A DNA stretch of 64,000 nt from a phage (GCA_037431425.1 GCA_037431425.1_4129.1), one strand, 5' to 3'. Positions 5,856-58,333 are shown, counted from the first letter of the stretch. Notes: generated by a model from the sequence alone, not told the origin. Translations and numbers: made by a program.

Positions 5856-6911
5856 ATGAACGCTGTACAAAACATAATGGCACAAATAATGAATGACCCA
5901 GTACCTGCAATTGGCACATGGACACATCACAACTGTCCCGCATGTGTGTTCAGAGGACATTCGAGGCCGGACATAAAGAACCGTGGTAATCATATGTTCA
6001 ATGCCGATGGTTCTGTTTCATATAACTGCTTTAACTGTAGTTTGAAAACTGGCTGGCAACCAGGAAAATATATGAGCAAAGATATGGAGTCTTTGCTCAT
6101 TTCTTTTGGTGCACAAGATAAAGAAATAGAATTAGTTAAGTTTTATATTAAAGAAATGGTTGATAGTGGTGAATATGCTACACAAGAAACCGTTGTAACA
6201 AAATTATATGACCGAATAACGGTACGTGATTTACCATCAAATGCTAAAACATTTTGGGATTGGGCTTCACTACCAGAAGATAAAATTCCGCAAGAATTTT
6301 TGAGTGTTTTACATCATGTAAATGAAAGAAATCCATATTTGTTGGATTTGGAATTATATTGGTCACCTAATAAAGAACATAAAATGTATGATAGATTTAT
6401 GATTCCTTATTACATGAATGGTAAAATAATTGGTTATACAGCGAGACATAAATTAAAAGATCCCGGAAGCACATACAGATTTATAAATCAGGTAAGTACT
6501 AATATATTGTATAATTATGATTTATTAAAAGATGACAGAATAAAAACGATTTTGGTATGTGAAGGACCGTTGGATGCAGCATTGATGGGTGGTGTATCTG
6601 CTAATAACTTTAAATTATCAAACTTGCAAATTGACGTATTAAAAGATGCCCAGAAAAAAGGGAAAAGGATAGTTATTGTTCCAGATAGAGACAAAGATGG
6701 ATTAATAACAATAGACCAAGCACTTGAAAATGGATTCAGTGTGTCTTTCCCTGATTTTGGAACAGTAAGAGAAGGTAGTACGATACGTCATATCAAAGAT
6801 TTTGAAGAGGCGTGTTCGCGATTTGGTAGGTTATTTTGCTTACAATTGATACATGATAGTATAGTAGATGAGCCATTTTATATTAAAGCTCAAACTGATA
6901 AATGGATGTAA
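5856..6911 (+). CDS. DNA primase, DnaG/T4 gp61-like (zinc-binding plus TOPRIM)
   Basis: CPAC...CFNC zinc motif near N-terminus; TOPRIM glutamate in ILVCEGPLDA and DxD in IVIVPDRDKDG. Confidence 0.8.
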   Translation: MNAVQNIMAQIMNDPVPAIGTWTHHNCPACVFRGHSRPDIKNRGNHMFNADGSVSYNCFNCSLKTGWQPGKYMSKDMESLLISFGAQDKEIELVKFYIKEMVDSGEYATQETVVTKLYDRITVRDLPSNAKTFWDWASLPEDKIPQEFLSVLHHVNERNPYLLDLELYWSPNKEHKMYDRFMIPYYMNGKIIGYTARHKLKDPGSTYRFINQVSTNILYNYDLLKDDRIKTILVCEGPLDAALMGGVSANNFKLSNLQIDVLKDAQKKGKRIVIVPDRDKDGLITIDQALENGFSVSFPDFGTVREGSTIRHIKDFEEACSRFGRLFCLQLIHDSIVDEPFYIKAQTDKWM

Positions 6912-6933
6912 TACATATAATGAGGGAACATAG

Positions 6934-8454
6934 ATGATTCAAAGCACAGTGGATGTGAAACAATATGGGATTAATGCACAACAATACTTATTATCTCAGA
7001 TTTTCAGTAATCCTGATTTGTATGTACGTTGTAAAAATATCCTTAAACCTGAATATTTTGATAAAACGTTTCATGAAAGTATTCAATTCGTACATGATTA
7101 CGCCGCAAAATATAGTTCTTCACCAACGTTGAAAGATATTGAAGTTAAAGGTGGTTATCAATACGATCATTATGAAGTACAAGAATTACATAAACAATCA
7201 GTGCTTGATACATGTGGTGAGTTTTGTCGCCATAAAGCATTGGCATTGGCAGTTGAAAAAGGAATGGAACTTGTTCATCAGAAAAAATATGGTGGAATCG
7301 AAGAGTTAATCCGAGAAGCGATGTTGGTAACTGTACAGAATGAGTTAGGTTTGGATATTTTTGAAAATCCAGAAGATACCATTCGCTCACTAAGTTCAAT
7401 GCAAGGGTCATTTAAAAGCGGATGGGAAACTCTTGATTATAAACTTTTCGGTGGTTTTGGGCGTAGAGAGTTAGAGATCTTTGCTGCTGCATCAGGTGGT
7501 GGTAAATCAGTAGTGCTACAAAATTTAGCAGTAAACTTTGCTAAAGCTGGTATGAATGGTGCATACATCTCACTAGAACTAGCTGAAGAGTTGGTTGCAG
7601 TTCGTATCTATGGTATGATGACAGAATCGAAACTCAGTAATGTAAAAAATGAAGCTGAAAAGATTGGATTTGCCGTTAAGGTAGAAGGTAAAAACAGTGG
7701 CATCTTGCGTATTAAACGTTTACCTGAATCTGTAACAACAACAGATGATATCGAAAGTTATTTGCGTGAATTACAAATTAAGTTGGAAATAAAACTTGAT
7801 TATGTATGCGTGGACTATTTGGATCTATTAACTTCTAACCGTCTTGGCCCAAATGATAAATCCAACACATTTACAAAAGACAAATTTGTATCAGAAGAAT
7901 TACGTGCTCTTGCGTCCAAAATGGATCTAACAGTTTTCACTGCATCACAGTTTAACCGTAGTGGGATGGATGAAGATAAGAAAAGTCAAAGTCAGATTGC
8001 TGGTGGTATTTCTAAAATTTATACTGCGGATAACGTAATTTATATTGAAGCAAAAAAAGACACTGGTGAATTATGGTTTGATTTCCAAAAAACACGTAAC
8101 AGTAGTGCTGTTGGTTCACGTTTGCGTATGTCATATGATATTGATTCATTGCGTGTTCTTGATCATGCAACTACAGTACAACAAATGGAAACTGAAGGTA
8201 ATGGTTTTCGACACAGTGGACTCTCTAAGATTGGTGGGGGTAATATGGTGTTACCACCTAGTACAATGCAAACATTGCGTCATACGCTCTCTGGTGCTGT
8301 CAAAACACCATCTACACAACCAAACAATCAGATAACACTAAATACTGATAGTGCTCCTAACACCGCAACACAAAATGATTCACTGTCACCGCCACAACAC
8401 GCGGCTTCTGACCGTGTTCATGCGATGAAGCAATGGTTAAATCAAAGGAAATGA
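6934..8454 (+). CDS. Replicative DNA helicase, DnaB/T4 gp41-like
   Basis: Walker A AAASGGGKSV, DnaB-type SQFNRS motif; low-complexity C-terminal extension. Confidence 0.8.
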   Translation: MIQSTVDVKQYGINAQQYLLSQIFSNPDLYVRCKNILKPEYFDKTFHESIQFVHDYAAKYSSSPTLKDIEVKGGYQYDHYEVQELHKQSVLDTCGEFCRHKALALAVEKGMELVHQKKYGGIEELIREAMLVTVQNELGLDIFENPEDTIRSLSSMQGSFKSGWETLDYKLFGGFGRRELEIFAAASGGGKSVVLQNLAVNFAKAGMNGAYISLELAEELVAVRIYGMMTESKLSNVKNEAEKIGFAVKVEGKNSGILRIKRLPESVTTTDDIESYLRELQIKLEIKLDYVCVDYLDLLTSNRLGPNDKSNTFTKDKFVSEELRALASKMDLTVFTASQFNRSGMDEDKKSQSQIAGGISKIYTADNVIYIEAKKDTGELWFDFQKTRNSSAVGSRLRMSYDIDSLRVLDHATTVQQMETEGNGFRHSGLSKIGGGNMVLPPSTMQTLRHTLSGAVKTPSTQPNNQITLNTDSAPNTATQNDSLSPPQHAASDRVHAMKQWLNQRK

Positions 8455-26955: not shown

Positions 26956-28018
<1,063 letters not shown>

Positions 28019-28036
28019 AATATAAACTTAAAAAAA

Positions 28037-28089
28037 CTCCAAGATTAGATATATGATAAATATCTAAAATAAATCTTGGAGTTTTTTTT
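28037..28089 (+). terminator. Long hairpin terminator
   Basis: ctccaagatt / aatcttggag outer stem with inner agatat/atatct pairing, then T8; A tract upstream suggests bidirectional capacity. Confidence 0.7.
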
Positions 28090-28102
28090 ATTATAAAGGG
28101 GT

Positions 28103-31128
<3,026 letters not shown>

Positions 31129-39122: not shown

Positions 39123-39130
39123 TGTGTCAA

Positions 39131-39457
39131 ATGACTAATAAAGTAATGACTGCATGTAAAGGTAAAGTTCTAGTAACTGATCTGGAACATGGTGAACGTA
39201 AAACGGCAGGTGGAATCGTTTTAACGAACGATGACGGCAAAATCAGGGGTATTCGTTCTCGCTGGGCAAAAGTCTATTCGGTCGGTGAAGACATTACTGA
39301 TATTAAAGAAGGACAATGGATTTTAATCGACCACGGTCGATGGTCAAGAACTATTGAAGTTGATGGTATTGAATTGAACTTAGTTGATTACCCTGCTGCT
39401 GTTAGTTTAGTATCAGATGAAGATCCAAGAACAAAAATGCTAACCTTTGGACGTTAA
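39131..39457 (+). CDS. GroES-like co-chaperonin (T4 gp31 analogue)
   Basis: KGKVLVTDLEHGERKTAGGIVL...KVYSVGEDI parallels the GroES pattern; start chosen at ATG 39131 (AGGAG 11 nt upstream). Confidence 0.6.
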   Translation: MTNKVMTACKGKVLVTDLEHGERKTAGGIVLTNDDGKIRGIRSRWAKVYSVGEDITDIKEGQWILIDHGRWSRTIEVDGIELNLVDYPAAVSLVSDEDPRTKMLTFGR

Positions 39458-46766: not shown

Positions 46767-47861
46767 ATGAATTTTATTATTCTGTTGATTCCTTCACTTA
46801 TCGTTGTATTTGTTATGAAATACATGTATGATAAGCATATCAGTACTAAAGAACTGTTGATTCATATTGGTTGTTGTATAGTTGGGGCTGCTCTTGTGCT
46901 TGGTATCTCATATGCAATCAACTACAGCCAATTGTACGATGTAGAGATTCTAAATGGGCAGGTAACATCCAAATATAATCACAAGGAGTTTTGTACACAA
47001 TCAAGCTCATGTAAGCATTACACGTGGCACGAGAAATGCAGAACTCGTTATGATAGTAAGGGGAAATCCCATCGTGAATGTGAGTCCTATAAGGTATTTG
47101 ATTATTCATACGAAGTTGACTGGTATGTAAAAAGTACTGTAGGGAAGTTTGAGATTGAGCGAGTAAACCGTCAGGGTACAATGACCCCTCCACGCTGGCA
47201 ACAGGTTAACATTGGGGATTATGTTGCCGCAGAAAGTTCTTATATTAACTATCTGTTCGCTGATAAAAACTCATTGTTTAGTCCTGATGAATTACATGAA
47301 ATGTATGATGAGAAATATCTTAGTTCTTTACCAGAATATCCAAGTATTAATGATTATTACATAACACATCATGTTATTAACAAAACAAATTATAATGTAT
47401 ATGGATATGAAGAATATTTACGTAACGTTTTGAAAACTATGGGTTCACGTAAAGAAGTCAATATCTTAGTTATTGTATACAATTATAAAGATAGTGATTT
47501 TGTTGATGCTACCTTAGCAAAGTGGCGTGGTGGTAAGAAGAATGATGTTATTATGTTCTTTGGTATTGATGGTGATGGTAATATTATTAAATTTAACAGT
47601 ACATCATTTGCCCAGGGAATGAAAAATGAAGGATTACATGCAAAGATGCGTATGGACGCATTAAATGAAAAATTAACGATTGACTTACTAGCAATAGAAG
47701 TGCATAATATTGATACACAGTTCGTGAGACTCTCTAATAAAGAGTTTGAGTACTTGTCTATTAAAATGGAACCACGAAAAGATGTTCTCATCGGTGCTTC
47801 TATTTTATTACTAATTATTTCTATTTTTATTGGCCTTTATATGAGGGATAACGAATTATGA
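46767..47861 (+). CDS. Membrane protein with N- and C-terminal hydrophobic segments
   Basis: 364 aa; IILLIPSLIVVFV and GCCIVGAALVLGI near N-terminus, ILLLIISIFIGLY at C-terminus. Confidence 0.5.
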   Translation: MNFIILLIPSLIVVFVMKYMYDKHISTKELLIHIGCCIVGAALVLGISYAINYSQLYDVEILNGQVTSKYNHKEFCTQSSSCKHYTWHEKCRTRYDSKGKSHRECESYKVFDYSYEVDWYVKSTVGKFEIERVNRQGTMTPPRWQQVNIGDYVAAESSYINYLFADKNSLFSPDELHEMYDEKYLSSLPEYPSINDYYITHHVINKTNYNVYGYEEYLRNVLKTMGSRKEVNILVIVYNYKDSDFVDATLAKWRGGKKNDVIMFFGIDGDGNIIKFNSTSFAQGMKNEGLHAKMRMDALNEKLTIDLLAIEVHNIDTQFVRLSNKEFEYLSIKMEPRKDVLIGASILLLIISIFIGLYMRDNEL

Positions 47862-48412
47862 ATGGTAAAGTTTTTGCATTAATTGGTGTTATTGTTGTAT
47901 TTGGTCTTATGGTAATTGGTTCCATTAGCATGTATGTAGGAACATATGATCGTGCGGTGGAATTTGAAGGTAATATTCAAAAGTATTATGATGCTTCAGA
48001 AAGTCAATTAAGTACTTATACCCTTACAATCCAAGAAAAGGTTCAAGTATCAGATAAGTATAAAGATGCATTGAAAGAAACAATTGAATCGTATTTCAAA
48101 GGACGTGAAGGTGTTGACCAGAAATTTGTAATGTCACAGATTCAACAGCAGGTTCCAAATCTTGATCCTAAAATTTACCAGGAGCTTATGGTAACAATTG
48201 AATCAGGACGTACAAAGTTCAACAATCTTCAAAAAATGAAAATCGACCAATGTACCGAATATTCCAAATTCCGCAAAGGATTCTGGAATTCCAAAATTCT
48301 TGATGTTAACACGTTTCCAAGTGAAAATATTGCACATCTTTGCACGGTAGTATCAGATACCCGCACAAAGAAAGCAATGGATACTGGTATTCAAGAAGTA
48401 ATTAAACTATAA
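47858..48412 (+). CDS. Membrane-anchored protein (possibly LemA-like, unverified)
   Basis: N-terminal TM VFALIGVIVVFGLMVIG; ATGA overlap with upstream membrane protein. Confidence 0.45.
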   Translation: MNGKVFALIGVIVVFGLMVIGSISMYVGTYDRAVEFEGNIQKYYDASESQLSTYTLTIQEKVQVSDKYKDALKETIESYFKGREGVDQKFVMSQIQQQVPNLDPKIYQELMVTIESGRTKFNNLQKMKIDQCTEYSKFRKGFWNSKILDVNTFPSENIAHLCTVVSDTRTKKAMDTGIQEVIKL

Positions 48413-49601: not shown

Positions 49602-49952
49602 ATGCTAATATATTTAAGTGTACTTGTTGTTTCGTTACTGTTATCACTGGTTATTTTAAAAATTATTGCTATTGTTCGAAGTAAGATTGATTGTTCTGAA
49701 ACTGGTTCAGTTATTGACTTGGTTCTTGATTATCCAAAGCGTTGTGGTGTTATTGTATTAATTGTTCTCCTTATGAATACATACATCGTCAGAGAACATT
49801 TATATAATATGTATGATTGTAGTGTTCGTTCATTTTCACAAGGTGTGGACACTGACTATAGTTGGTATTATAAGAAATGTCGATTTAAAAACCAACACGG
49901 TATTTGGGTTGATTTTGATAAATTACGTGGAACCCCTACTGGAGAAGAATAA
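49602..49952 (+). CDS. Small membrane protein
   Basis: Two hydrophobic segments near N-terminus. Confidence 0.45.
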   Translation: MLIYLSVLVVSLLLSLVILKIIAIVRSKIDCSETGSVIDLVLDYPKRCGVIVLIVLLMNTYIVREHLYNMYDCSVRSFSQGVDTDYSWYYKKCRFKNQHGIWVDFDKLRGTPTGEE

Positions 49953-49954
49953 TT

Positions 49955-50446
49955 ATGTTTGTCTTCCCTGAAGAGCCATTTAATTTCATTGATCCTACGG
50001 ATGATGGGTATAGACATATTAACATTTATAGTAAAGCCAGAACTAAGCTAGGTAGAGATCTATCTAATTTTTCGTCATATAGCTTCACACTGGAACCATA
50101 TGGGTGGTTTCCATCAGTTGAAACGTTTTACTTTTGGTTTTTAACTGGTCAAAAACACGACGACCTTAGAAAAGTATCTGGTGCAACAGCAAAGGCTGCT
50201 GCTAACAAATATATGCATGATAGAATTATAATGACTGATGATTGTATCTCTATTATTCAAGATGCAATATGTGCTAAGATAATTCAAAACCCAGAGTTAT
50301 CTGAAAGATTAAGAAAAAGCAAATTACCATTCTACCATTACTATGTTTATGGTGGGAAGGTTGTTGATGTATCTGATGAGCATGACTGGTTTGTTAAAAC
50401 ATTCGAAGATATAAGAATTGTTTTAAAGGAGAATCACAATGACTAA
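49955..50446 (+). CDS. NADAR/YbiA-like domain protein
   Basis: INIYSK...LSNFSSYSF...FPSVETFYFW and AICAKIIQNPELSERL parallel YbiA-family blocks. Confidence 0.55.
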   Translation: MFVFPEEPFNFIDPTDDGYRHINIYSKARTKLGRDLSNFSSYSFTLEPYGWFPSVETFYFWFLTGQKHDDLRKVSGATAKAAANKYMHDRIIMTDDCISIIQDAICAKIIQNPELSERLRKSKLPFYHYYVYGGKVVDVSDEHDWFVKTFEDIRIVLKENHND

Positions 50447-51098: not shown

Positions 51099-51517
51099 AG
51101 TACTATCGAATTCGAGTTGGAGTAAGCTCTGGTTTTAGTAATTGGGTATATTATGATTTACCTGATAGCTATACCGTAGAAGATGTAATTAACTTATATT
51201 ATGAAGAAGAGACATGGGTACTCAGTACTGAAACACATAGTGTAGTGTGTGAAGAACTATGTGCAGAAGATTACAAGCACTCTGTCCAAGCAATGAAGTA
51301 TTACAGTAACGATGTGAAGATGTTATCTGAAAACATTTTTCCGGTAAAAGAATGGGCAATTTTACTTGCAAATCCTAACAAACCTGTTAGAATTGGTTAT
51401 CCAAACAATCATATGGTTTATCGAATGAATAATAAACGTGAGCTAAGTTATCAGTATGAATACAGTGCTTCTAAGTTTGGAGTTCTACCACAATTTAAAA
51501 AGGCTTATCCAGTATGA
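51095..51517 (+). CDS. Hypothetical protein
   Basis: 140-aa ORF. Confidence 0.5.
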   Translation: MKYYRIRVGVSSGFSNWVYYDLPDSYTVEDVINLYYEEETWVLSTETHSVVCEELCAEDYKHSVQAMKYYSNDVKMLSENIFPVKEWAILLANPNKPVRIGYPNNHMVYRMNNKRELSYQYEYSASKFGVLPQFKKAYPV

Positions 51518-51849
51518 ACAATGACAACAAAGAATTTATAGTACGTTGTAGTTGTGGCGATAATACTGAACATTGTGTTCACATTGCACAATTTGACTTG
51601 ACTCAAGAAGATGGAGATGGTAAACTTGGTCAATGTTTGGTGAGTATGCGTTTGAATCCTTTCTTAAAATGGCACAAACGTGTATTGGTTGGATTGAAGT
51701 ATATTTTTGGTGTAAACGATTTTCAATATAAAGAAGCAATGATTGATGTTGACATTCTGAAAGAAGTTGTGTTACAATTAGAAGACACCCGACCCGATGA
51801 GGTAAAGAAAGAAGAAAGAGATAAACGTAGTGATGTGAAGGTTTTATGA
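51514..51849 (+). CDS. Hypothetical protein
   Basis: 111-aa ORF, ATGA overlap. Confidence 0.5.
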   Translation: MNNDNKEFIVRCSCGDNTEHCVHIAQFDLTQEDGDGKLGQCLVSMRLNPFLKWHKRVLVGLKYIFGVNDFQYKEAMIDVDILKEVVLQLEDTRPDEVKKEERDKRSDVKVL

Positions 51850-52046: not shown

Positions 52047-52475
52047 ATGAATATCGAACAAATCATCAGTAATCATTCTTTCTTCGCTCCAGAAACTGGT
52101 CGTGTAATTGAGAATGTCAAAATCGAAGAACTTATGGTGAATGTTAAATATAAAGAGCCAAATGATGAGATTAGCAGCACTTTTTGTGCACTTCGTGCAC
52201 CATTCCGCAATGAAAAAGCAAAAAAACCAGCATATGTTCTTGCAATTGCTTTAGGGTGTGTTGTTAAACTTGCAGTTGATGAAAATATTATTAATATCAA
52301 AGTCGCCCCTACCAATGACGAAGAAAACATTGATTTGAACTTTGATGGTAATCTCGACGAAGATGTATTTTTTCAACAGTCACTTGTTTATGACTTCCGT
52401 ACCGTGACATATTCACATATTAACTTCGTCAATGAAATGGTTGATATTGTAGCCAAATATGAAGAATCTCTATAA
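52047..52475 (+). CDS. FQxS-motif paralogue family member
   Basis: C-terminal DEDVFFQQSLVYDF. Confidence 0.55.
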   Translation: MNIEQIISNHSFFAPETGRVIENVKIEELMVNVKYKEPNDEISSTFCALRAPFRNEKAKKPAYVLAIALGCVVKLAVDENIINIKVAPTNDEENIDLNFDGNLDEDVFFQQSLVYDFRTVTYSHINFVNEMVDIVAKYEESL

Positions 52476-52486
52476 TTAAATCATAA

Positions 52487-52509
52487 AAGCCTCCATGTTG
52501 GAGGCTTTT
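52487..52509 (+). terminator. Rho-independent terminator
   Basis: aagcctcca / tggaggctt stem, tgt loop, T tract. Confidence 0.7.
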
Positions 52510-52532
52510 CTCACATAAGGAAATGAAGAAAT

Positions 52533-53084
52533 ATGATTGAACAAATTAATATTCTCACACAACAAATTACCGACTTTCTTTCAGATAAAGAAGGTTTCAA
52601 AACTGAAGTGAAAATGCACGGAGTTAGTCTTGATGTAATTTCACCAGATGGAAATGTTACAAATTATGATATGTACGAATTGTTTCTTTACACTTTAGCA
52701 GTACGTAAACTAGGAAGTGACATTGAACTAAACATTAACACTGATAGTGATGGAAATAAAATTTTTGCAATCAATACAAGTGCTAAGTATGATGTTAGTG
52801 CAGAAATTAAAAAAATTAACGATAGCTTTGTTGGTTTCACCCATGATTCAATTCAAGGTGTTTTTGTAGGTAAACAAACTTCATCAAGTCAATGCCCATT
52901 TTGTATTATGACTTTATATAAAAATGGTGATTGGATGCGACAAGACTTGGTATATGCTGAAATGTTGTATGCATTTACACATGGTCTAGAAATTGAATTA
53001 GATGATAGTGCTTTTTGCTTTAAGAAAATCCGAAAACTCACAAATGATATTCAAAAGCAACTTAAAGAATTAAATGATAAATAA
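52533..53084 (+). CDS. Hypothetical protein
   Basis: 183-aa ORF; N-terminus (MIEQINILTQQI) resembles family N-termini but the C-terminal motif is not evident. Confidence 0.5.
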   Translation: MIEQINILTQQITDFLSDKEGFKTEVKMHGVSLDVISPDGNVTNYDMYELFLYTLAVRKLGSDIELNINTDSDGNKIFAINTSAKYDVSAEIKKINDSFVGFTHDSIQGVFVGKQTSSSQCPFCIMTLYKNGDWMRQDLVYAEMLYAFTHGLEIELDDSAFCFKKIRKLTNDIQKQLKELNDK

Positions 53085-53195
53085 ATGTACCAGAAGTGGT
53101 TAACATATCATGTTATTTTCCTCCCTTACATAATAATGATGCGTTATTAGATTTTCATTTTATTATTTCTTTTTTGTACAAAATCATATTAGTAC

Positions 53196-53218
53196 TGCCC
53201 CGTATATCGGGGCATTTT
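53196..53218 (+). terminator. Rho-independent terminator
   Basis: tgccccg / cggggca stem, then T4. Confidence 0.6.
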
Positions 53219-53241
53219 ATTATCTAAAATATGGTGATTTT

Positions 53242-53634
53242 ATGAAAAACATTGGCTCTTCTATACAAAAAGACCTTTCATTTTACCTTAATAAATTCAG
53301 AAGTATAAATGGTAATAAATTTAATAGTATCTATCAGTTCACACATAAAGAATATATTACTATTGATCCCTTTTCAAAAAAACTGATGTATGTTAATGAT
53401 AATAATTATAGTGTTAAATTATCATTCGATATTGTGTTAGATAAATTAACATTTACGGAATACACTACCAATAAAACTTCATTTTTACACAAGTATAATA
53501 GAAAGGTATATAATCATATTTCTAGTTATTTAAATGAAGATTATCACTTTCAACAATCTACAATAGAAAAAGTATTATTCAGTACTGAAGAATTAAAAGA
53601 ATTATATTATTGGTATGAGAAATTTACATCTTGA
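53242..53634 (+). CDS. FQxS-motif paralogue family member
   Basis: C-terminal NEDYHFQQSTIEKV. Confidence 0.55.
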   Translation: MKNIGSSIQKDLSFYLNKFRSINGNKFNSIYQFTHKEYITIDPFSKKLMYVNDNNYSVKLSFDIVLDKLTFTEYTTNKTSFLHKYNRKVYNHISSYLNEDYHFQQSTIEKVLFSTEELKELYYWYEKFTS

Positions 53635-53689
53635 CATTATGGTGGTTTCATCTTACAATACAAGATAATGATGCGTTGAGGACAAATTC

Positions 53690-54100
53690 ATGAGTATAGA
53701 TTTACACAATGAACTACAATATTTTTTTGATTTGGATATATCACGTTTGAACAGACATGTCAATCATATATCCAGAACTATATGGTGGTCTGATGAGGCT
53801 GATGAACCAAGGATTCAGATTTGTGATAATTTGTCAGTTTTAAGATTGTATGTTCTTGATACCGAAATGAATATTATGATAACATACGTACCACCCACAA
53901 ACAAACTTCTAATCAACACACTAAACCCAGATACAGTACTGAAAATTTTTGATTTGGATACGATACAGTCAAGCGAAACACTATTCCAACGTTCATTGGT
54001 TGATGATCTAGGGGGTATTTCTTTTGACGATATATTAAAATTGAAGAAGATGTATAATGAATTATTAGAGATTAAAAATACCGTTCTAATGGGGATTTAA
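53690..54100 (+). CDS. FQxS-motif paralogue family member
   Basis: C-terminal SSETLFQRSLVDDL. Confidence 0.55.
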   Translation: MSIDLHNELQYFFDLDISRLNRHVNHISRTIWWSDEADEPRIQICDNLSVLRLYVLDTEMNIMITYVPPTNKLLINTLNPDTVLKIFDLDTIQSSETLFQRSLVDDLGGISFDDILKLKKMYNELLEIKNTVLMGI

Positions 54101-54101
54101 T

Positions 54102-54506
54102 ATGGTAAGTTTATTAGATATTGATAATACTAGTCTGGTTCTGGTGAAAAAAGGATTAATTCCAAATTCTAACAAGATTGATTATGCTGTTATTGAAACA
54201 AATATTGGGAATATCTGGTACGACTCTGAAAGAGACATTGTGTTTAGCTGTGTAGATAGTGATCGTTCTGAGTGCTGTAGGGTTGGGCATGACGGACAAT
54301 TTATTTTCGAATTTCGTTTCTGGAAAGATTCCAGATTTCACCAGGAGCATGTTTCAATTACAAATGTAAATTGTAATGAAGAATCATTCTTCATGGAAAG
54401 TACTATTAATGATTTTGGCTCAGTTACTTTTGAGTACTATAAAAAAGTATATAACTTGTACAGAGAAGTAATTCGAATCATAAGAACCTCTGAGGGTCAA
54501 GATTAA
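54102..54506 (+). CDS. FQxS-motif paralogue family member (variant FFMES)
   Basis: C-terminal NEESFFMESTINDF. Confidence 0.5.
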   Translation: MVSLLDIDNTSLVLVKKGLIPNSNKIDYAVIETNIGNIWYDSERDIVFSCVDSDRSECCRVGHDGQFIFEFRFWKDSRFHQEHVSITNVNCNEESFFMESTINDFGSVTFEYYKKVYNLYREVIRIIRTSEGQD

Positions 54507-54507
54507 T

Positions 54508-54885
54508 ATGACTACTACCATATATAATATTTTAGGTAACTTGAATAAAAACATAGATAATGATTTTGTTATAGTTGAAAACACTAAAAATATAATTCAT
54601 CTACCATTGGGTACACCAGATAGGTTAATTTTTAACATATACGCTAACACACTGACATACATACACGATGGTATGGTTATCGTTGTGCTTGATATTAAAG
54701 AAAATACAATACGATATGCATATGACTTTAACGTTTATTGGTCAAGAACTCATTGTATTGATATTGAGGAAGATGAACTTTTTCAATTATCGTTAATTGA
54801 GAAAAATGTAATAGGAGTTACCGAGATTGGTATTGTTAAAAAAGCTTTGGAATATGCAAATAAAAAAATAAATGGCGAACTATGA
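54508..54885 (+). CDS. FQxS-motif paralogue family member
   Basis: C-terminal EEDELFQLSLIEKN. Confidence 0.55.
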   Translation: MTTTIYNILGNLNKNIDNDFVIVENTKNIIHLPLGTPDRLIFNIYANTLTYIHDGMVIVVLDIKENTIRYAYDFNVYWSRTHCIDIEEDELFQLSLIEKNVIGVTEIGIVKKALEYANKKINGEL

Positions 54886-55346
54886 TGAACATTGAGGAAA
54901 TAAAAAATCATTTTGAAATTGCATTGTCTTGTGATTTTGATAGTTGTTATGTTACTGAACCAGAAGATATAATTAGAATTTCCACATCGTTTTCAGAAGA
55001 ATACAATATACTCATTGAGAAATCATATGACAGAACCGAACTCTCATTTTACAATAAGGATTTACGAACAACATCATTTATATTATTATATAACACAACA
55101 TCGGATATAATAGAGATTATAACAAGTAAAACAGGTAAAACAAGTAAAGATGTACATTATGAGACTATACCAAATGTAAGTTATTGTTCAACAGAAGAAG
55201 GATACTTCCAGGAATCACTTATTAAAAATTTATCAGTTAGCTATTCTGATTTAAGCATTATAGTCAATTATGTGGAAAAGTTAAATGATTTCGTTCTATC
55301 GATGTTTGATATCACTGAGCAAAAACCAAAGGAAATCAAATGTTAA
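54882..55346 (+). CDS. FQxS-motif paralogue family member
   Basis: C-terminal TEEGYFQESLIKNL; ATGA overlap. Confidence 0.55.
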   Translation: MMNIEEIKNHFEIALSCDFDSCYVTEPEDIIRISTSFSEEYNILIEKSYDRTELSFYNKDLRTTSFILLYNTTSDIIEIITSKTGKTSKDVHYETIPNVSYCSTEEGYFQESLIKNLSVSYSDLSIIVNYVEKLNDFVLSMFDITEQKPKEIKC

Positions 55347-55795
55347 ATCCTGGACATTTTTTTCATTTACTGGACATTACACCTATACCCGATTTAATCA
55401 GCGAGACTAATCATTATCGTGATATTGGAATTGTATCAATGGAATATGATTCACCTGACTTTAAATGTTACGTAACATACGATCAGGTGGCTTATGAGTC
55501 AGAGCCTGCGATTAAAAAACCATCATATATTTTTGTGTTCATATATAATGATTATAGTGGTGATGTACTGAATGATGTTCATATTGACACATTTGAAATA
55601 TGTGGTAATATTATATCAGATGATTCAGCATCCACATTTGATTTGGAATTAAACAGTACTGAAGAGTCACTTTTTCAGTTGAGTACTATATGTGATACTA
55701 TATTAACTCTAGATGACATTGAGAAATTTAAAGAACAGCTTGACGCAGTTCGTGAGATGTTCTATAATCATTATCCAGAAGTAGAGTTCAATTAA
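55340..55795 (+). CDS. FQxS-motif paralogue family member
   Basis: C-terminal TEESLFQLSTICDT. Confidence 0.55.
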   Translation: MLNPGHFFHLLDITPIPDLISETNHYRDIGIVSMEYDSPDFKCYVTYDQVAYESEPAIKKPSYIFVFIYNDYSGDVLNDVHIDTFEICGNIISDDSASTFDLELNSTEESLFQLSTICDTILTLDDIEKFKEQLDAVREMFYNHYPEVEFN

Positions 55796-55809
55796 CTAAA
55801 GGTAATAAG

Positions 55810-56070
55810 ATGACTAAAGTAGTTCGTAAACGCCACATGATGAATATGGATGAATTTCGTACATTTGACAAATATCGTACTATGTTTCGTATGCTGTCAC
55901 AGGGTCGCCCAATCGTCATTGTAACAGAGAATTACATGTCACCTGAGATTATGTTTGGTAATTACGAAAAGGTCTTCATGTTGTACGTGAAGCGTGGATT
56001 GCTTACAATCAAGACATTAGCTGAAGCAACTGATGATGATATGGATGGAGATAATACCTTTACCATGTGA
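55810..56070 (+). CDS. Hypothetical protein
   Basis: 86-aa ORF. Confidence 0.45.
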   Translation: MTKVVRKRHMMNMDEFRTFDKYRTMFRMLSQGRPIVIVTENYMSPEIMFGNYEKVFMLYVKRGLLTIKTLAEATDDDMDGDNTFTM

Positions 56071-56148
56071 GGAAATATATGTCTGAAAAACCAAAAGAAC
56101 CTTTAGATCGTGATGATGATTTTTATGACGAACGATATGGAGATGATA

Positions 56149-56400
56149 ATGAGTGAACATAGTGCGGTGCTTAAAAAGATTTTAAAGGAAATTGATGGTG
56201 AGTTTAATGTCACAGAAGAAGAATATCAGCATTGGAAGAAAGATTTCGAACAACTAACCGAGTATGATAAAGTGTTCAATATGATTGGCGTAATTAGCCA
56301 GTACTTACTTGGTGGAGGACGTGCAAGTGCTTCAATTCTGGCATCTGCAATCATCTGTACATCACGATGGTGTGATGAAAAAAGTTTGGAAGATTTCTAA
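56149..56400 (+). CDS. Hypothetical protein
   Basis: ATG 56149 with GGAG upstream. Confidence 0.45.
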   Translation: MSEHSAVLKKILKEIDGEFNVTEEEYQHWKKDFEQLTEYDKVFNMIGVISQYLLGGGRASASILASAIICTSRWCDEKSLEDF

Positions 56401-56452: not shown

Positions 56453-58333
56453 ATGAAACCTATCCGAGTACTATCTCTTTTTAATGGGATGAGTGTAGGA
56501 TACATGGCATTAAAAGATGCTGGTATCCCTGTTGAAAAATATTATTCATCCGAAATTGACAAATTTGCTATAGCTGAATCCCAAGCTAACTTCCCCGATA
56601 TCATCCAATTGGGTGATGTAACTAGATGGAGAGAATGGGATATTGAATGGGATAAGATAGATCTACTGATGGGTGGTTTTCCATGCTTCCCAGCAGGAAC
56701 TATGATAATGACAAATAAAGGTCATAAAGATATAAAAGATATAAAAATTGGTGATATGGTTCTTACACACACTGGACAGTACCAAAAAGTATTGAGTACT
56801 GGTGTTAAAAAGGCTCCCACTCGTATTATTACAGGTCAAGGTCACCTTCCAATTGAATGTACCGATAATCATCCATTTTGGAGTAGGGAACGTCTAGCCA
56901 ATAAATGGAATAATCAACACCGAAGATATGATTCTGTGTTTTCTGAACCGCAATGGGTAAATGCTATAGATCTTACTAAACAAAGTTATATTTGTAATGT
57001 TAAAAATATTACACATAATACAGTAAGTGATAAAGATGAAAAATATTGGTATTTTGTTGGTCGTTTTATGGGTGATGGATGTGCTAGTGTATCTAATAAC
57101 AAATACAGTATTACTATTGTAGATTCATTAGATAAAGTTGATGAATTGAAAAAATGTTTTGATGATTTTGGATACAAATACACATTAGCTATTAAAGATA
57201 ATCATGTAAGATGTGATATATATAGCAAAAAGCTTTATGATGAATTAATATGTATTGGGCATAAATCACAAAACAAATGTTTACCACCTGAAATATTCAA
57301 TGAAACTATCAATAACAAAGAAGCATTTATTAAAGGATACATGGATGCAGATGGTTGTGAGGATAAACACAATAAAAAATACAAATTTACCACCACAAGT
57401 TATAAAATAGTTCTTGGTATGCAACAGTTAATCTTAGATACTTATCAACGTCATTGTACTATTAGTCAAACTGTTCCAAAAACAAAAAAATATATAAAAA
57501 ATAAGTTGGTTAATCAGCTTCCGTATTGGAATGTTCATTTTAGCTATAATAAAATTAAAAGAGATGATGTAATATATGATGAAATTTATATATGGAATCG
57601 TGGTGTAAAAAGTAATGTACCAACCGGAGAATGGAAAACCGTTTACAATATTGAAGTTGCAGTAGATAACACATATACAGCGAACAATATTGTAGTTCAT
57701 AACTGCCAAGCGTGGTCAGTTGCAGGTAAACAGGGTGGAATAAATGATCCTCGTGGTATGTTATTCCATACAATGGTTGATATTTACCAGCACATAAAAA
57801 GTCTCAATCCAGACTTGAAAGTACTGTTCGAGAATGTTAAAATGAAAGAAGATTTCAAGCAATACATTAATAGTGTTCTTGAGATGACACCAGTACTGAT
57901 AAATTCCCAGCATTATACGCCTCACTTCAGGCAGAGATATTACTGGTACAGTACTGATAAACTTTTTATACCACCTGCATTATCAAATGCACCTAAACTT
58001 CAAGATATTATTGAAGATGGTTGGTACACTGACAGAACCGCTTCGTACTGTATAGATGCTAACTATTTTAAGGGTGGGGATTGTAACCAGTACTTTAATA
58101 AATCAAGAAGACAAATTGTTTTCAAAGAACCTGATATCGATAGGGATTTCCTTCTTGAACATGGTAAGCGAAATGTGGACTATCGTCATTTAACAGTGCA
58201 AGAGTGTTGCATGTTGCAAGGAATTGATGTAAACTACTTCAAAGTTAGTAGTTCAACACAAGCATACAAAATGCTTGGGAATGGATGGACTATGCCAGTT
58301 ATATCACACTTACTACGAGATATATTCTTTTGA
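56453..58333 (+). CDS. DNA (cytosine-5)-methyltransferase interrupted by an intein
   Basis: Motif I LSLFNGMSVG; motif IV split as GGFP | intein | CQAWSVAGK; motif VI FENV; GNGWTMPV near C-terminus; host protein about 286 aa without the intein. Confidence 0.8.
   Translation: MKPIRVLSLFNGMSVGYMALKDAGIPVEKYYSSEIDKFAIAESQANFPDIIQLGDVTRWREWDIEWDKIDLLMGGFPCFPAGTMIMTNKGHKDIKDIKIGDMVLTHTGQYQKVLSTGVKKAPTRIITGQGHLPIECTDNHPFWSRERLANKWNNQHRRYDSVFSEPQWVNAIDLTKQSYICNVKNITHNTVSDKDEKYWYFVGRFMGDGCASVSNNKYSITIVDSLDKVDELKKCFDDFGYKYTLAIKDNHVRCDIYSKKLYDELICIGHKSQNKCLPPEIFNETINNKEAFIKGYMDADGCEDKHNKKYKFTTTSYKIVLGMQQLILDTYQRHCTISQTVPKTKKYIKNKLVNQLPYWNVHFSYNKIKRDDVIYDEIYIWNRGVKSNVPTGEWKTVYNIEVAVDNTYTANNIVVHNCQAWSVAGKQGGINDPRGMLFHTMVDIYQHIKSLNPDLKVLFENVKMKEDFKQYINSVLEMTPVLINSQHYTPHFRQRYYWYSTDKLFIPPALSNAPKLQDIIEDGWYTDRTASYCIDANYFKGGDCNQYFNKSRRQIVFKEPDIDRDFLLEHGKRNVDYRHLTVQECCMLQGIDVNYFKVSSSTQAYKMLGNGWTMPVISHLLRDIFF
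56684..57703 (+). mobile_element. Intein with LAGLIDADG homing endonuclease domain (340 aa)
   Basis: Starts CFPAGTMIMT (block A), ends VVHN followed by extein Cys; two LAGLIDADG-like motifs FVGRFMGDGC and IKGYMDADGC. Confidence 0.8.

Follow-up and report, generated by a model that had tools for sequence, protein, structure and literature searches.

A NADAR-superfamily protein of a jumbo coliphage from a large His-type phage clade, with a putative role against DarT1-type toxins

The 163-aa protein encoded in the studied window (the whole stretch of phage DNA which was analysed, 64,000 nucleotides) belongs to the NADAR superfamily and is predicted to have the fold of ADP-ribose-stripping enzymes; this assignment is well supported by profile comparisons and a structural model. 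A well-supported annotation for the gene is that of a NADAR-superfamily protein of a His-type phage clade, with a putative substrate. Based on analogy with AdfN of phage T4, we tentatively propose that the protein is an ADP-ribosyl N-glycohydrolase which would act on guanine in phage DNA and counter DarT1-type toxins. By nucleotide similarity, the source phage is a jumbo coliphage of the Asteriusvirus type: at the nucleotide level, the window is 98% identical to Escherichia phage ph0011, and its identity to a further 33 or so phages of ~350 kb is about 84%. The coordinates of the gene, its signals, its conserved residues and its upstream neighbour are presented in Table 1.

Table 1. Features of the gene and its surroundings; positions are counted from the first nucleotide of the window
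Feature	Coordinates	Strand	Description
CDS	49955..50446 (including stop)	+	163-aa NADAR-superfamily protein (PHROG 652 clade)
Shine-Dalgarno-like motif GGAG	49941..49944	+	ATG starts about 10-11 nt past GGAG
DGYRHINIYSK (residues 17-27)	50003..50035	+	N-terminal strand with clade-specific motif
L36-S37-N38-F39	50060..50071	+	NADAR signature (L/F)SNF; N38 98-99% conserved
E56	50120..50122	+	Predicted catalytic or distal-ribose-binding Glu; 99-100% conserved
L63	50141..50143	+	Position of the canonical phosphate-binding Lys (Glu+7); Lys lost
K80	50192..50194	+	Near-invariant Lys in G-x-x-A-K helix; 98-99% conserved
H128-Y129-Y130	50336..50344	+	Last-strand motif with the 'phage NADAR' His
Upstream neighbour	49602..49952	+	116 aa, two hydrophobic segments; PHROG 8041; positional association only

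Gene and selective constraint

The ORF listing of the window contains an ATG-started ORF of 163 aa exactly where the original prediction placed it. The three blocks which had been cited as YbiA-like are also all found in the translation, namely LSNFSSYSF (residues 36-44), FPSVETFYFW (residues 52-61) and AICAKIIQNPELSERL (residues 104-119). In the profile-profile alignment they are in register with FSNFAAWPI, WPTSEHYFQA and ALRAKFEQHAELRALL of YbiA, respectively, and the resemblance exceeds chance. The gene is part of a tightly packed block on the same strand, with a gap of 2 nt to the upstream stop codon and an overlap of 8 nt with the downstream ORF; in each flanking gene (starting at 49602 and 50439) a GGAG precedes the ATG at a nearly equal distance. 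The dN/dS is 0.03-0.04 against two orthologues (83-87% nucleotide identity), which indicates that the gene is functional and constrained. Overall, the gene looks real and expressed.

Family assignment

The placement in a NADAR/YbiA-like family holds with family profiles, profile-profile alignment and fold comparison, and fails with a single-sequence HMM scan. The HMM search against the NADAR family, which had been suggested as a check, is negative: the protein has no Pfam or NCBIfam match at E≤10, and phmmer finds no single-sequence match among the PDB sequences. Because deeper profiles do match, we consider these empty searches a sensitivity limit and not evidence against NADAR. The protein matches PHROG 652 (E 4e-43) and PHROG 11222, both without an assigned function. 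When all 177,635 distinct PDB sequences are searched with a profile built from 27 homologues, two matches only are obtained, both of them NADARs: 8BAU (E 7e-5), which is the Phytophthora nicotianae NADAR with ADP-ribose (PMC11543638), and 2B3W (E 3e-4). A profile of 82 sequences again finds only 8BAU (6e-6) and 2B3W (5e-4). The AlphaFold2 model built from the alignment has a mean pLDDT of 90.6 and a pTM of 0.83, and in a search of predicted viral structures the top matches are members of the clade, and after them come many giant-virus and phage proteins which are annotated with a NADAR domain. In profile-profile comparison (hhalign) the clade aligns with the T4 gp30.3 family over 140 columns (Prob 97.7%, E 2.4e-12) and with the YbiA family over 135 columns (Prob 95.6%, E 1.2e-8); as a calibration, the gp30.3 and YbiA families align with each other at 97.9%. 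It is the concordance and specificity of these profile and fold results that support membership of the superfamily.

Concerning the gp30.3 family, its Pfam model PF08010 (Phage_30_3) has no match in the 163-aa protein. The best members of the clade reach E-values from 4e-6 to 0.01 with this model, one of them with a score of 20.4 bits against a cut-off of 36. Based on this failure and on the absent Lys of the Glu/Lys pair, we treat the PHROG 652 clade as a sister of the T4 gp30.3/AdfN 'phage NADAR' family and not as part of it.

A few homologues are already labelled in GenBank: 'NADAR domain-containing protein' in phage Turkey3, 'YbiA' in cyanophage Pam2 and 'putative N-glycosidase' in Serratia phage Yaphecito. 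Nearly all other homologue records among the matches listed are labelled 'hypothetical protein'. In some Ackermannviridae records the NADAR-like homologue carries the label 'virion structural protein'.

Distribution and domain fusions

Searched exhaustively with a profile, a set of 1.84 billion representative proteins yields 2,082 clusters at E≤1e-3, of which 641 are found at E≤1e-30, and by tblastn the clade is found in 506-591 sequenced phages. These are Ackermannviridae (Vi01-like), Asteriusvirus, RaK2-like phages and jumbo phages of Erwinia, Serratia, Ralstonia and Vibrio. In prokaryotes, the one search pattern used gives 17 loci in about 186,000 GTDB species-representative genomes, which is an undercount. 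The clade is essentially viral.

Among the 85 long members, the fused Pfam domains are DUF4326 (23 members), YAcAr SLOG (18), a DprA-like model (9), Macro (6) and DUF488-N3a (6), and more rarely an Rv2179c-like exoribonuclease (2) and a canonical PF08719 NADAR (1). DUF488-N3a is located at the C-terminus of the clade members (e.g. P0019, L014 4551-5342). A stand-alone DUF488-N3a gene is also found adjacent to a clade member in a bacterial MAG (L022 4460-4954), and DUF4326 likewise occurs as a separate gene, as described below; both look like functional partners of the clade. This partner set is that of the NAD+/ADP-ribose domain network of large viruses described by Iyer et al., who predicted soluble ADP-ribose-derived signals as the main targets for degradation by phage NADARs (PMC7824862, PMC9503650).

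The member fused to the canonical Pfam NADAR is metagenomic. Also, Pseudanabaena phage Pam2 has two tandem 'YbiA' homologues between its RNR and thymidylate synthase genes (L002 2501-3434). Together, these two cases suggest non-redundant roles of different NADAR types.

Conserved residues

Seven residues of the protein (N38, E56, K80, H128, Y129, Y130 and W145) are 97-100% conserved across the clade; K108 is a further near-invariant. Concerning the N-terminal region, D17, G18, H21, N23, Y25 and S26 are 94-100% conserved and K27 76-79%. The stretch INIYS aligns with INFYS of YbiA, and D17, G18 and H21 are not matched by any conserved residue in the consensus of either gp30.3 or YbiA. We infer a role of this motif in the leaving-group pocket.

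Both the SNF motif and the catalytic Glu of NADARs (E43 in PnNADAR, E88 in the E. coli C7 NADAR) are present. Residues 36-39 (LSNF) are matched by LSNF in both 8BAU and T4 AdfN and by FSNF in YbiA, and E56 aligns with E36 of AdfN, E48 of YbiA and the Glu of SSE in PnNADAR. Mutation of this Glu kills the function of AdfN (E36A) and, in vitro, of the E. coli C7 NADAR (E88Q); alanine and related substitutions of E88 abolish rescue in vivo (PMC11257639, PMC11543638).

The main departure is at L63, which aligns with K43 of AdfN, K55 of YbiA and K50 of PnNADAR. The Glu+7 Lys coordinates phosphate in PnNADAR (K50) and is largely conserved across the superfamily (PMC11543638); it is essential where tested, as K43A inactivates AdfN and K95A inactivates the E. 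coli C7 NADAR (PMC11257639, PMC11543638). The column is K in 97% of the gp30.3 family and 100% of the YbiA family, and L39/G18/S17% in the clade; an alternative alignment of 176 clade members gives L26/S23/G22/K7. Since the canonical Lys is missing, the phosphate-binding mode, and possibly the substrate, would differ from those of the tested NADARs.

In the alignment, K80 is paired with the leading Lys of AKK in 8BAU, in a column which is Lys in 98-99% of the clade and 87% of the gp30.3 family. By analogy, it may serve as a substitute for phosphate or ribose binding which compensates for the lost Lys. A second active-site Lys has been implicated in the E. coli C7 NADAR (K115) and in SCO5665 (K117) (PMC11543638, PMC12945103), and K80 may be its counterpart. 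T4 AdfN (L003 7308-7766, - strand) has a Gln (Q62) at this A-K position, so T4 AdfN would rely on K43; as the clade has the other Lys only, the alignment thus suggests a reciprocal pattern.

In the last strand, H128 is 100% and Y129 and Y130 are 99% conserved in the clade. H128 pairs with H123, which is invariant in the gp30.3/AdfN family, and coincides with VEH of YbiA (E125-H126); Y127-H128 replaces YbiA E125-H126, and Y130 aligns with W133. The five-residue loop which bears D130 in canonical NADARs is absent in the clade, likewise in gp30.3. Four NADAR families are distinguished by the last-strand residue, namely Glu for the NADAR and the YbiA types, Asp for DarG1 and His for phage gp30.3 (PMC11543638, PMC11125620, PMC12945103). 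The two shared traits, the last-strand His and the loss of the D130 loop, make the 163-aa protein a His-type phage NADAR as judged from the alignments. The clade has also a beta-hairpin insert after the His. R154 corresponds to R149 of AdfN and R153 of YbiA and is 83-86% conserved.

Two further contacts of ADP-ribose in 8BAU are R79 and W89 (PMC11543638). The R79 position is occupied by N84, a replacement of the protein's own sub-lineage; about 73% of the clade has R or K there. About a quarter of the clade has a DW dipeptide, apparently the W89 equivalent in alignments read by eye, and the 163-aa protein is without a Trp at this place.

Genomic neighbourhoods

In the window, the gene comes after a 45-kb replication/nucleotide-metabolism module and then a block of TelA, LemA and uncharacterised genes. 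The original prediction placed it among small early genes just upstream of a paralogue array, and neither part of this description is borne out. For the early genes there is no supporting evidence, and two nearby + strand ORFs match PHROGs labelled virion structural protein: 47858-48412 (phrog_1383, LemA-like in relatives) and 51514-51849 (phrog_12660). Given these matches and the labels of the Ackermannviridae records, the block may not be one of early genes, and packaging of the NADAR-like protein into the virion is possible. Within the supposed array (52047-56400, +) a single weak BLAST pair is found (53690-54100 vs 54102-54506, 31% over 36 aa, E 4e-4). The ORF 52047-52475 encodes a 142-aa protein which matches six different small PHROGs, a hint that the region holds a very divergent repeated family.

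The two hydrophobic segments of the 116-aa upstream neighbour are probably transmembrane. This protein is encoded directly upstream in 8 non-redundant jumbo-phage loci, and the order is kept in L010; it is 29% identical (E 2e-28) to the corresponding neighbour in L037, where the NADAR-like proteins are 54% identical. The tie to the NADAR-like function is one of position only, and the two proteins may not share a function. In ph0011 the neighbour is labelled 'WWE domain-containing protein'; it has no Pfam match at E≤0.1, and for this reason we do not use the WWE label as a link to ADP-ribose.

The window contains no second NADAR, gp30.3-like or YbiA-like ORF at E≤10, no Macro, SLOG or DUF4326 gene was identified near the NADAR-like gene, and no ART was found beside it. 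In the near-identical ph0011 record, the annotations of the replication/nucleotide module include a homologue of the translation initiation factor IF-3, a protein with a ClpS domain and a co-chaperone GroES, which are unusual, host-like functions for a phage; judged from the ph0011 locus (L006), their positions in the window would be ~27880-28950 and ~39130-39450. A 626-aa ORF (56453-58333, +) is a DNA cytosine methyltransferase by ph0011 annotation. If the DNA of the phage is modified, this could bear on the specificity of a NADAR which acts on DNA; such an effect has been reported for T4 AdfN.

Elsewhere in the clade, no partner gene is conserved clade-wide across seven neighbourhoods and 245 flanking ORFs clustered from 64 non-redundant loci. 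The neighbours seen are lineage-specific genes without known function and, sporadically, ART, DUF4326, DUF488, 2H and ligase genes. On L007, a metagenomic phage contig of 117 kb, the clade member (6001-6435) is tail-to-tail, at 65 nt, with an ART gene (6500-7678) whose 392-aa product contains PF03496 (ADPrib_exo_Tox); this closeness resembles that of adfN and alt, which are about 3 kb apart in T4 (L003). In L011 the neighbours of the clade member encode a DNA ligase, an exoribonuclease and a PIF1 helicase; in L012 they are a gene for a 2H/LigT phosphoesterase and one of the Metallophos family; and in L015 they are Pol III alpha and, 2 kb upstream, a DUF4326 gene. No DarT Pfam family is found in the seven sampled neighbourhoods or among the recurrent neighbour families of this non-exhaustive survey. 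Also, the bacterial members show no link to DarT-like toxins among the few annotated neighbours of the 17 GTDB loci.

Proposed function and alternative substrates

The original prediction was of a counter-defence factor against DarTG. As three phage NADARs (T4 AdfN, AdfN-Bas32 and AdfN-Bas60) are shown to counter DarTG1 (PMC11825919), this is reasonable by analogy, and an anti-DarT role of the 163-aa protein is plausible. Three qualifications apply. NADARs reverse the guanine modification of DarT1 and not the thymine modification of DarT2, so 'DarTG' should read 'DarTG1'; the lost Lys, together with the missing R79 and apparently W89 equivalents, weighs against the prediction; and so do the fusion partners linked to soluble signals. 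According to the proposed mechanism, a minimal, core-only NADAR enzyme from an almost wholly viral clade would bind its substrate with E56 and H128 flanking the distal ribose and with Y130 and K80 holding the ADP-ribose, and would cut the ribose-N(base) bond. ADP-ribose would thus be taken off guanine in replicating phage DNA, and the damage done by a host DarT1-type ADP-ribosyltransferase would be undone as it is by AdfN. In favour of a glycohydrolase of this kind we count AdfN as the nearest characterised relative, the intact and constrained Glu/His core and the replication-adjacent context. Against the anti-DarT1 reading we count the missing equivalents of the Glu+7 Lys, R79 and apparently W89, the failure of the Pfam NADAR and Phage_30_3 models to detect the protein, fusion partners which have been proposed to act on soluble ADP-ribose derivatives and not on DNA adducts (PMC9503650, PMC7824862), the rarity of the clade in cellular genomes and the fact that no DarT-linked bacterial clade member was found among the few loci with annotated neighbours. 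In the literature searched, we found no experiment on any member of the PHROG 652 clade.

It is doubtful, though worth consideration, that the clade as a whole is a third major phage NADAR lineage which has abandoned the canonical phosphate-binding Lys and has an N-terminal pocket of its own (D17, G18, H21, N23, K27, R34) and a substrate other than DarT1-modified guanine in DNA. That substrate could be a soluble ADP-ribose-derived immune signal or a new adduct of ADP-ribose or a related ribosyl group, made by a host defence and processed together with the fused Macro, SLOG, DUF4326 or DUF488 enzymes.

A soluble substrate taken by itself is an unlikely but serious alternative. The enzyme would then cleave a NAD- or ADP-ribose-derived molecule, such as a cyclic or modified immune signal or a toxic ADP-ribose phosphate, and would degrade host messengers alone or with Macro, SLOG and DUF4326 proteins. 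The fusions among the 85 long members (DUF4326, YAcAr SLOG, DprA-like, Macro and DUF488-N3a), the separate neighbouring DUF4326 and DUF488-N3a genes and the prediction of Iyer et al. for phage NADARs (PMC9503650, PMC7824862) are all in line with such a role. The loss of the diphosphate-binding Lys, of R79 and apparently of W89 would fit an altered ligand, D17-G18-x2-H21-x-N23 could form a different leaving-group pocket, and E. coli YbiA is an example of a NADAR which acts on small-molecule N-ribosides (PMC11125620). However, all NADARs tested so far cleave guanine-ADPr on nucleic acids, none is reported in the literature searched to cleave an immune signalling nucleotide, and AdfN, the nearest characterised relative by profile, is a DNA enzyme. 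The gene in the window also stands alone, with no Macro, SLOG or DUF4326 partner identified nearby.

Reversal of another nucleic-acid adduct (on RNA, cytosine or another base), or service as an antidote to an ART of the phage's own, is improbable. The proximity of clade member and ART in L007, and of adfN and alt in T4, speaks for it, as do the members which are beside or fused to 2H/LigT RNA-end-processing or Rv2179c-like exoribonuclease proteins; moreover, NADARs act on RNA guanine-ADPr and some of them on cytidine-ADPr (PMC12945103). Yet the His-type T4 AdfN does not cleave cytidine-ADPr (PMC12945103), no ART was found beside the gene in the window, and the variable neighbourhoods offer no clade-wide partner.

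We consider it very improbable that the protein is a YbiA-like metabolic N-glycosidase for riboflavin-pathway or nucleotide-like ribosylamines with no defence role: the last-strand Glu has given way to Y127-H128, the D130 loop is missing, the YbiA invariants K55, R79 and W89 are absent, and the fusions are to domains of the ADP-ribose network and not to riboflavin enzymes. A catalytically dead NADAR fold, which would bind a ligand or block a host protein, agrees with the loss of the essential Lys and of two ADP-ribose contacts but is hardly credible, since seven residues conserved at 97-100% over 2,082 clusters and a very low dN/dS are typical of an intact active site and the repeated fusion to other enzymes suggests catalysis.

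Significance

Phage NADARs as anti-DarTG1 factors are already known, jumbo-phage NADARs have appeared in comparative-genomics surveys, and the GenBank record of at least one orthologue carries the NADAR label. What is new with respect to the literature searched is a distinct and very large His-type clade, missed by the Pfam NADAR and Phage_30_3 models, and the clade-wide loss of a Lys which is considered essential for NADAR activity. The experiments on NADAR counter-defence cover only T4 AdfN and two canonical NADARs, and the clade, almost always annotated as 'hypothetical', is found in about 590 sequenced phages, including the therapy-relevant Vi01-like and jumbo phages. If its members reverse guanine ADP-ribosylation without the Lys, the catalytic model of NADARs needs revision and the reach of anti-DarT1 functions grows substantially. 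If the substrate differs, this would point to an uncharacterised ADP-ribose-based host defence or signal; a non-DarT1 substrate would mean a new enzymatic counter-defence in hundreds of Ackermannviridae and jumbo phages.

Comparison with known NADAR systems

The closest characterised family by profile is that of T4 gp30.3/AdfN (PF08010); AdfN strips ADP-ribose from DNA modified by DarT1 and depends on E36 and K43 for this (PMC11257639, PMC11825919). Like AdfN, the 163-aa protein is a core-only protein of ~150-160 aa from a large myovirus. The two share the LSNF motif and the deletion of the D130 loop, and the invariant Glu, the invariant last-strand His and the C-terminal Arg have their equivalents in AdfN (E56 = E36, H128 = H123 and R154 = R149). 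Unlike AdfN, the 163-aa protein has L63 in place of K43 (a Lys in 97% of the gp30.3 family), and PF08010 does not match it. The clade also has invariants of its own (D17-G18, H21, N23, HYY, W145 and the beta-hairpin after the His) and is found in Ackermannviridae and jumbo phages and not in T4-like phages; the activity of AdfN is shown, whereas that of the clade is predicted.

The distance to E. coli YbiA (2B3W, PF08719) is greater, with 16% identity and no equivalent of YbiA K55, R79, W89, E125 and D130. YbiA is a cellular N-glycosidase of riboflavin intermediates, whose substrates in vitro also include guanine- and cytidine-ADPr (PMC11125620, PMC12945103). Of the ADP-ribose contacts in 8BAU (K50, R79, W89, D130 and W133; PMC11543638), W133 alone is represented in the 163-aa protein, by another aromatic residue (Y130). 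The DarG1 NADARs (8BAT, E. coli C7) have a last-strand Asp, an N-terminal extension and an adjacent darT1, in contrast to the clade, which has a His, no extension and no DarT1 linkage found in the loci sampled.

AdfN-Bas32 and AdfN-Bas60 were found by conserved-domain DELTA-BLAST and cluster with archaeal and bacterial NADARs (PMC11825919). By description they are set apart from the clade, which is missed by Pfam NADAR and has no T5- or rV5-like phages among the tblastn matches listed. The 163-aa protein resembles them as a phage-borne, stand-alone NADAR; AdfN-Bas32 and AdfN-Bas60, which are outside the T4 group, show that NADARs have been recruited by phages several times (PMC11825919).
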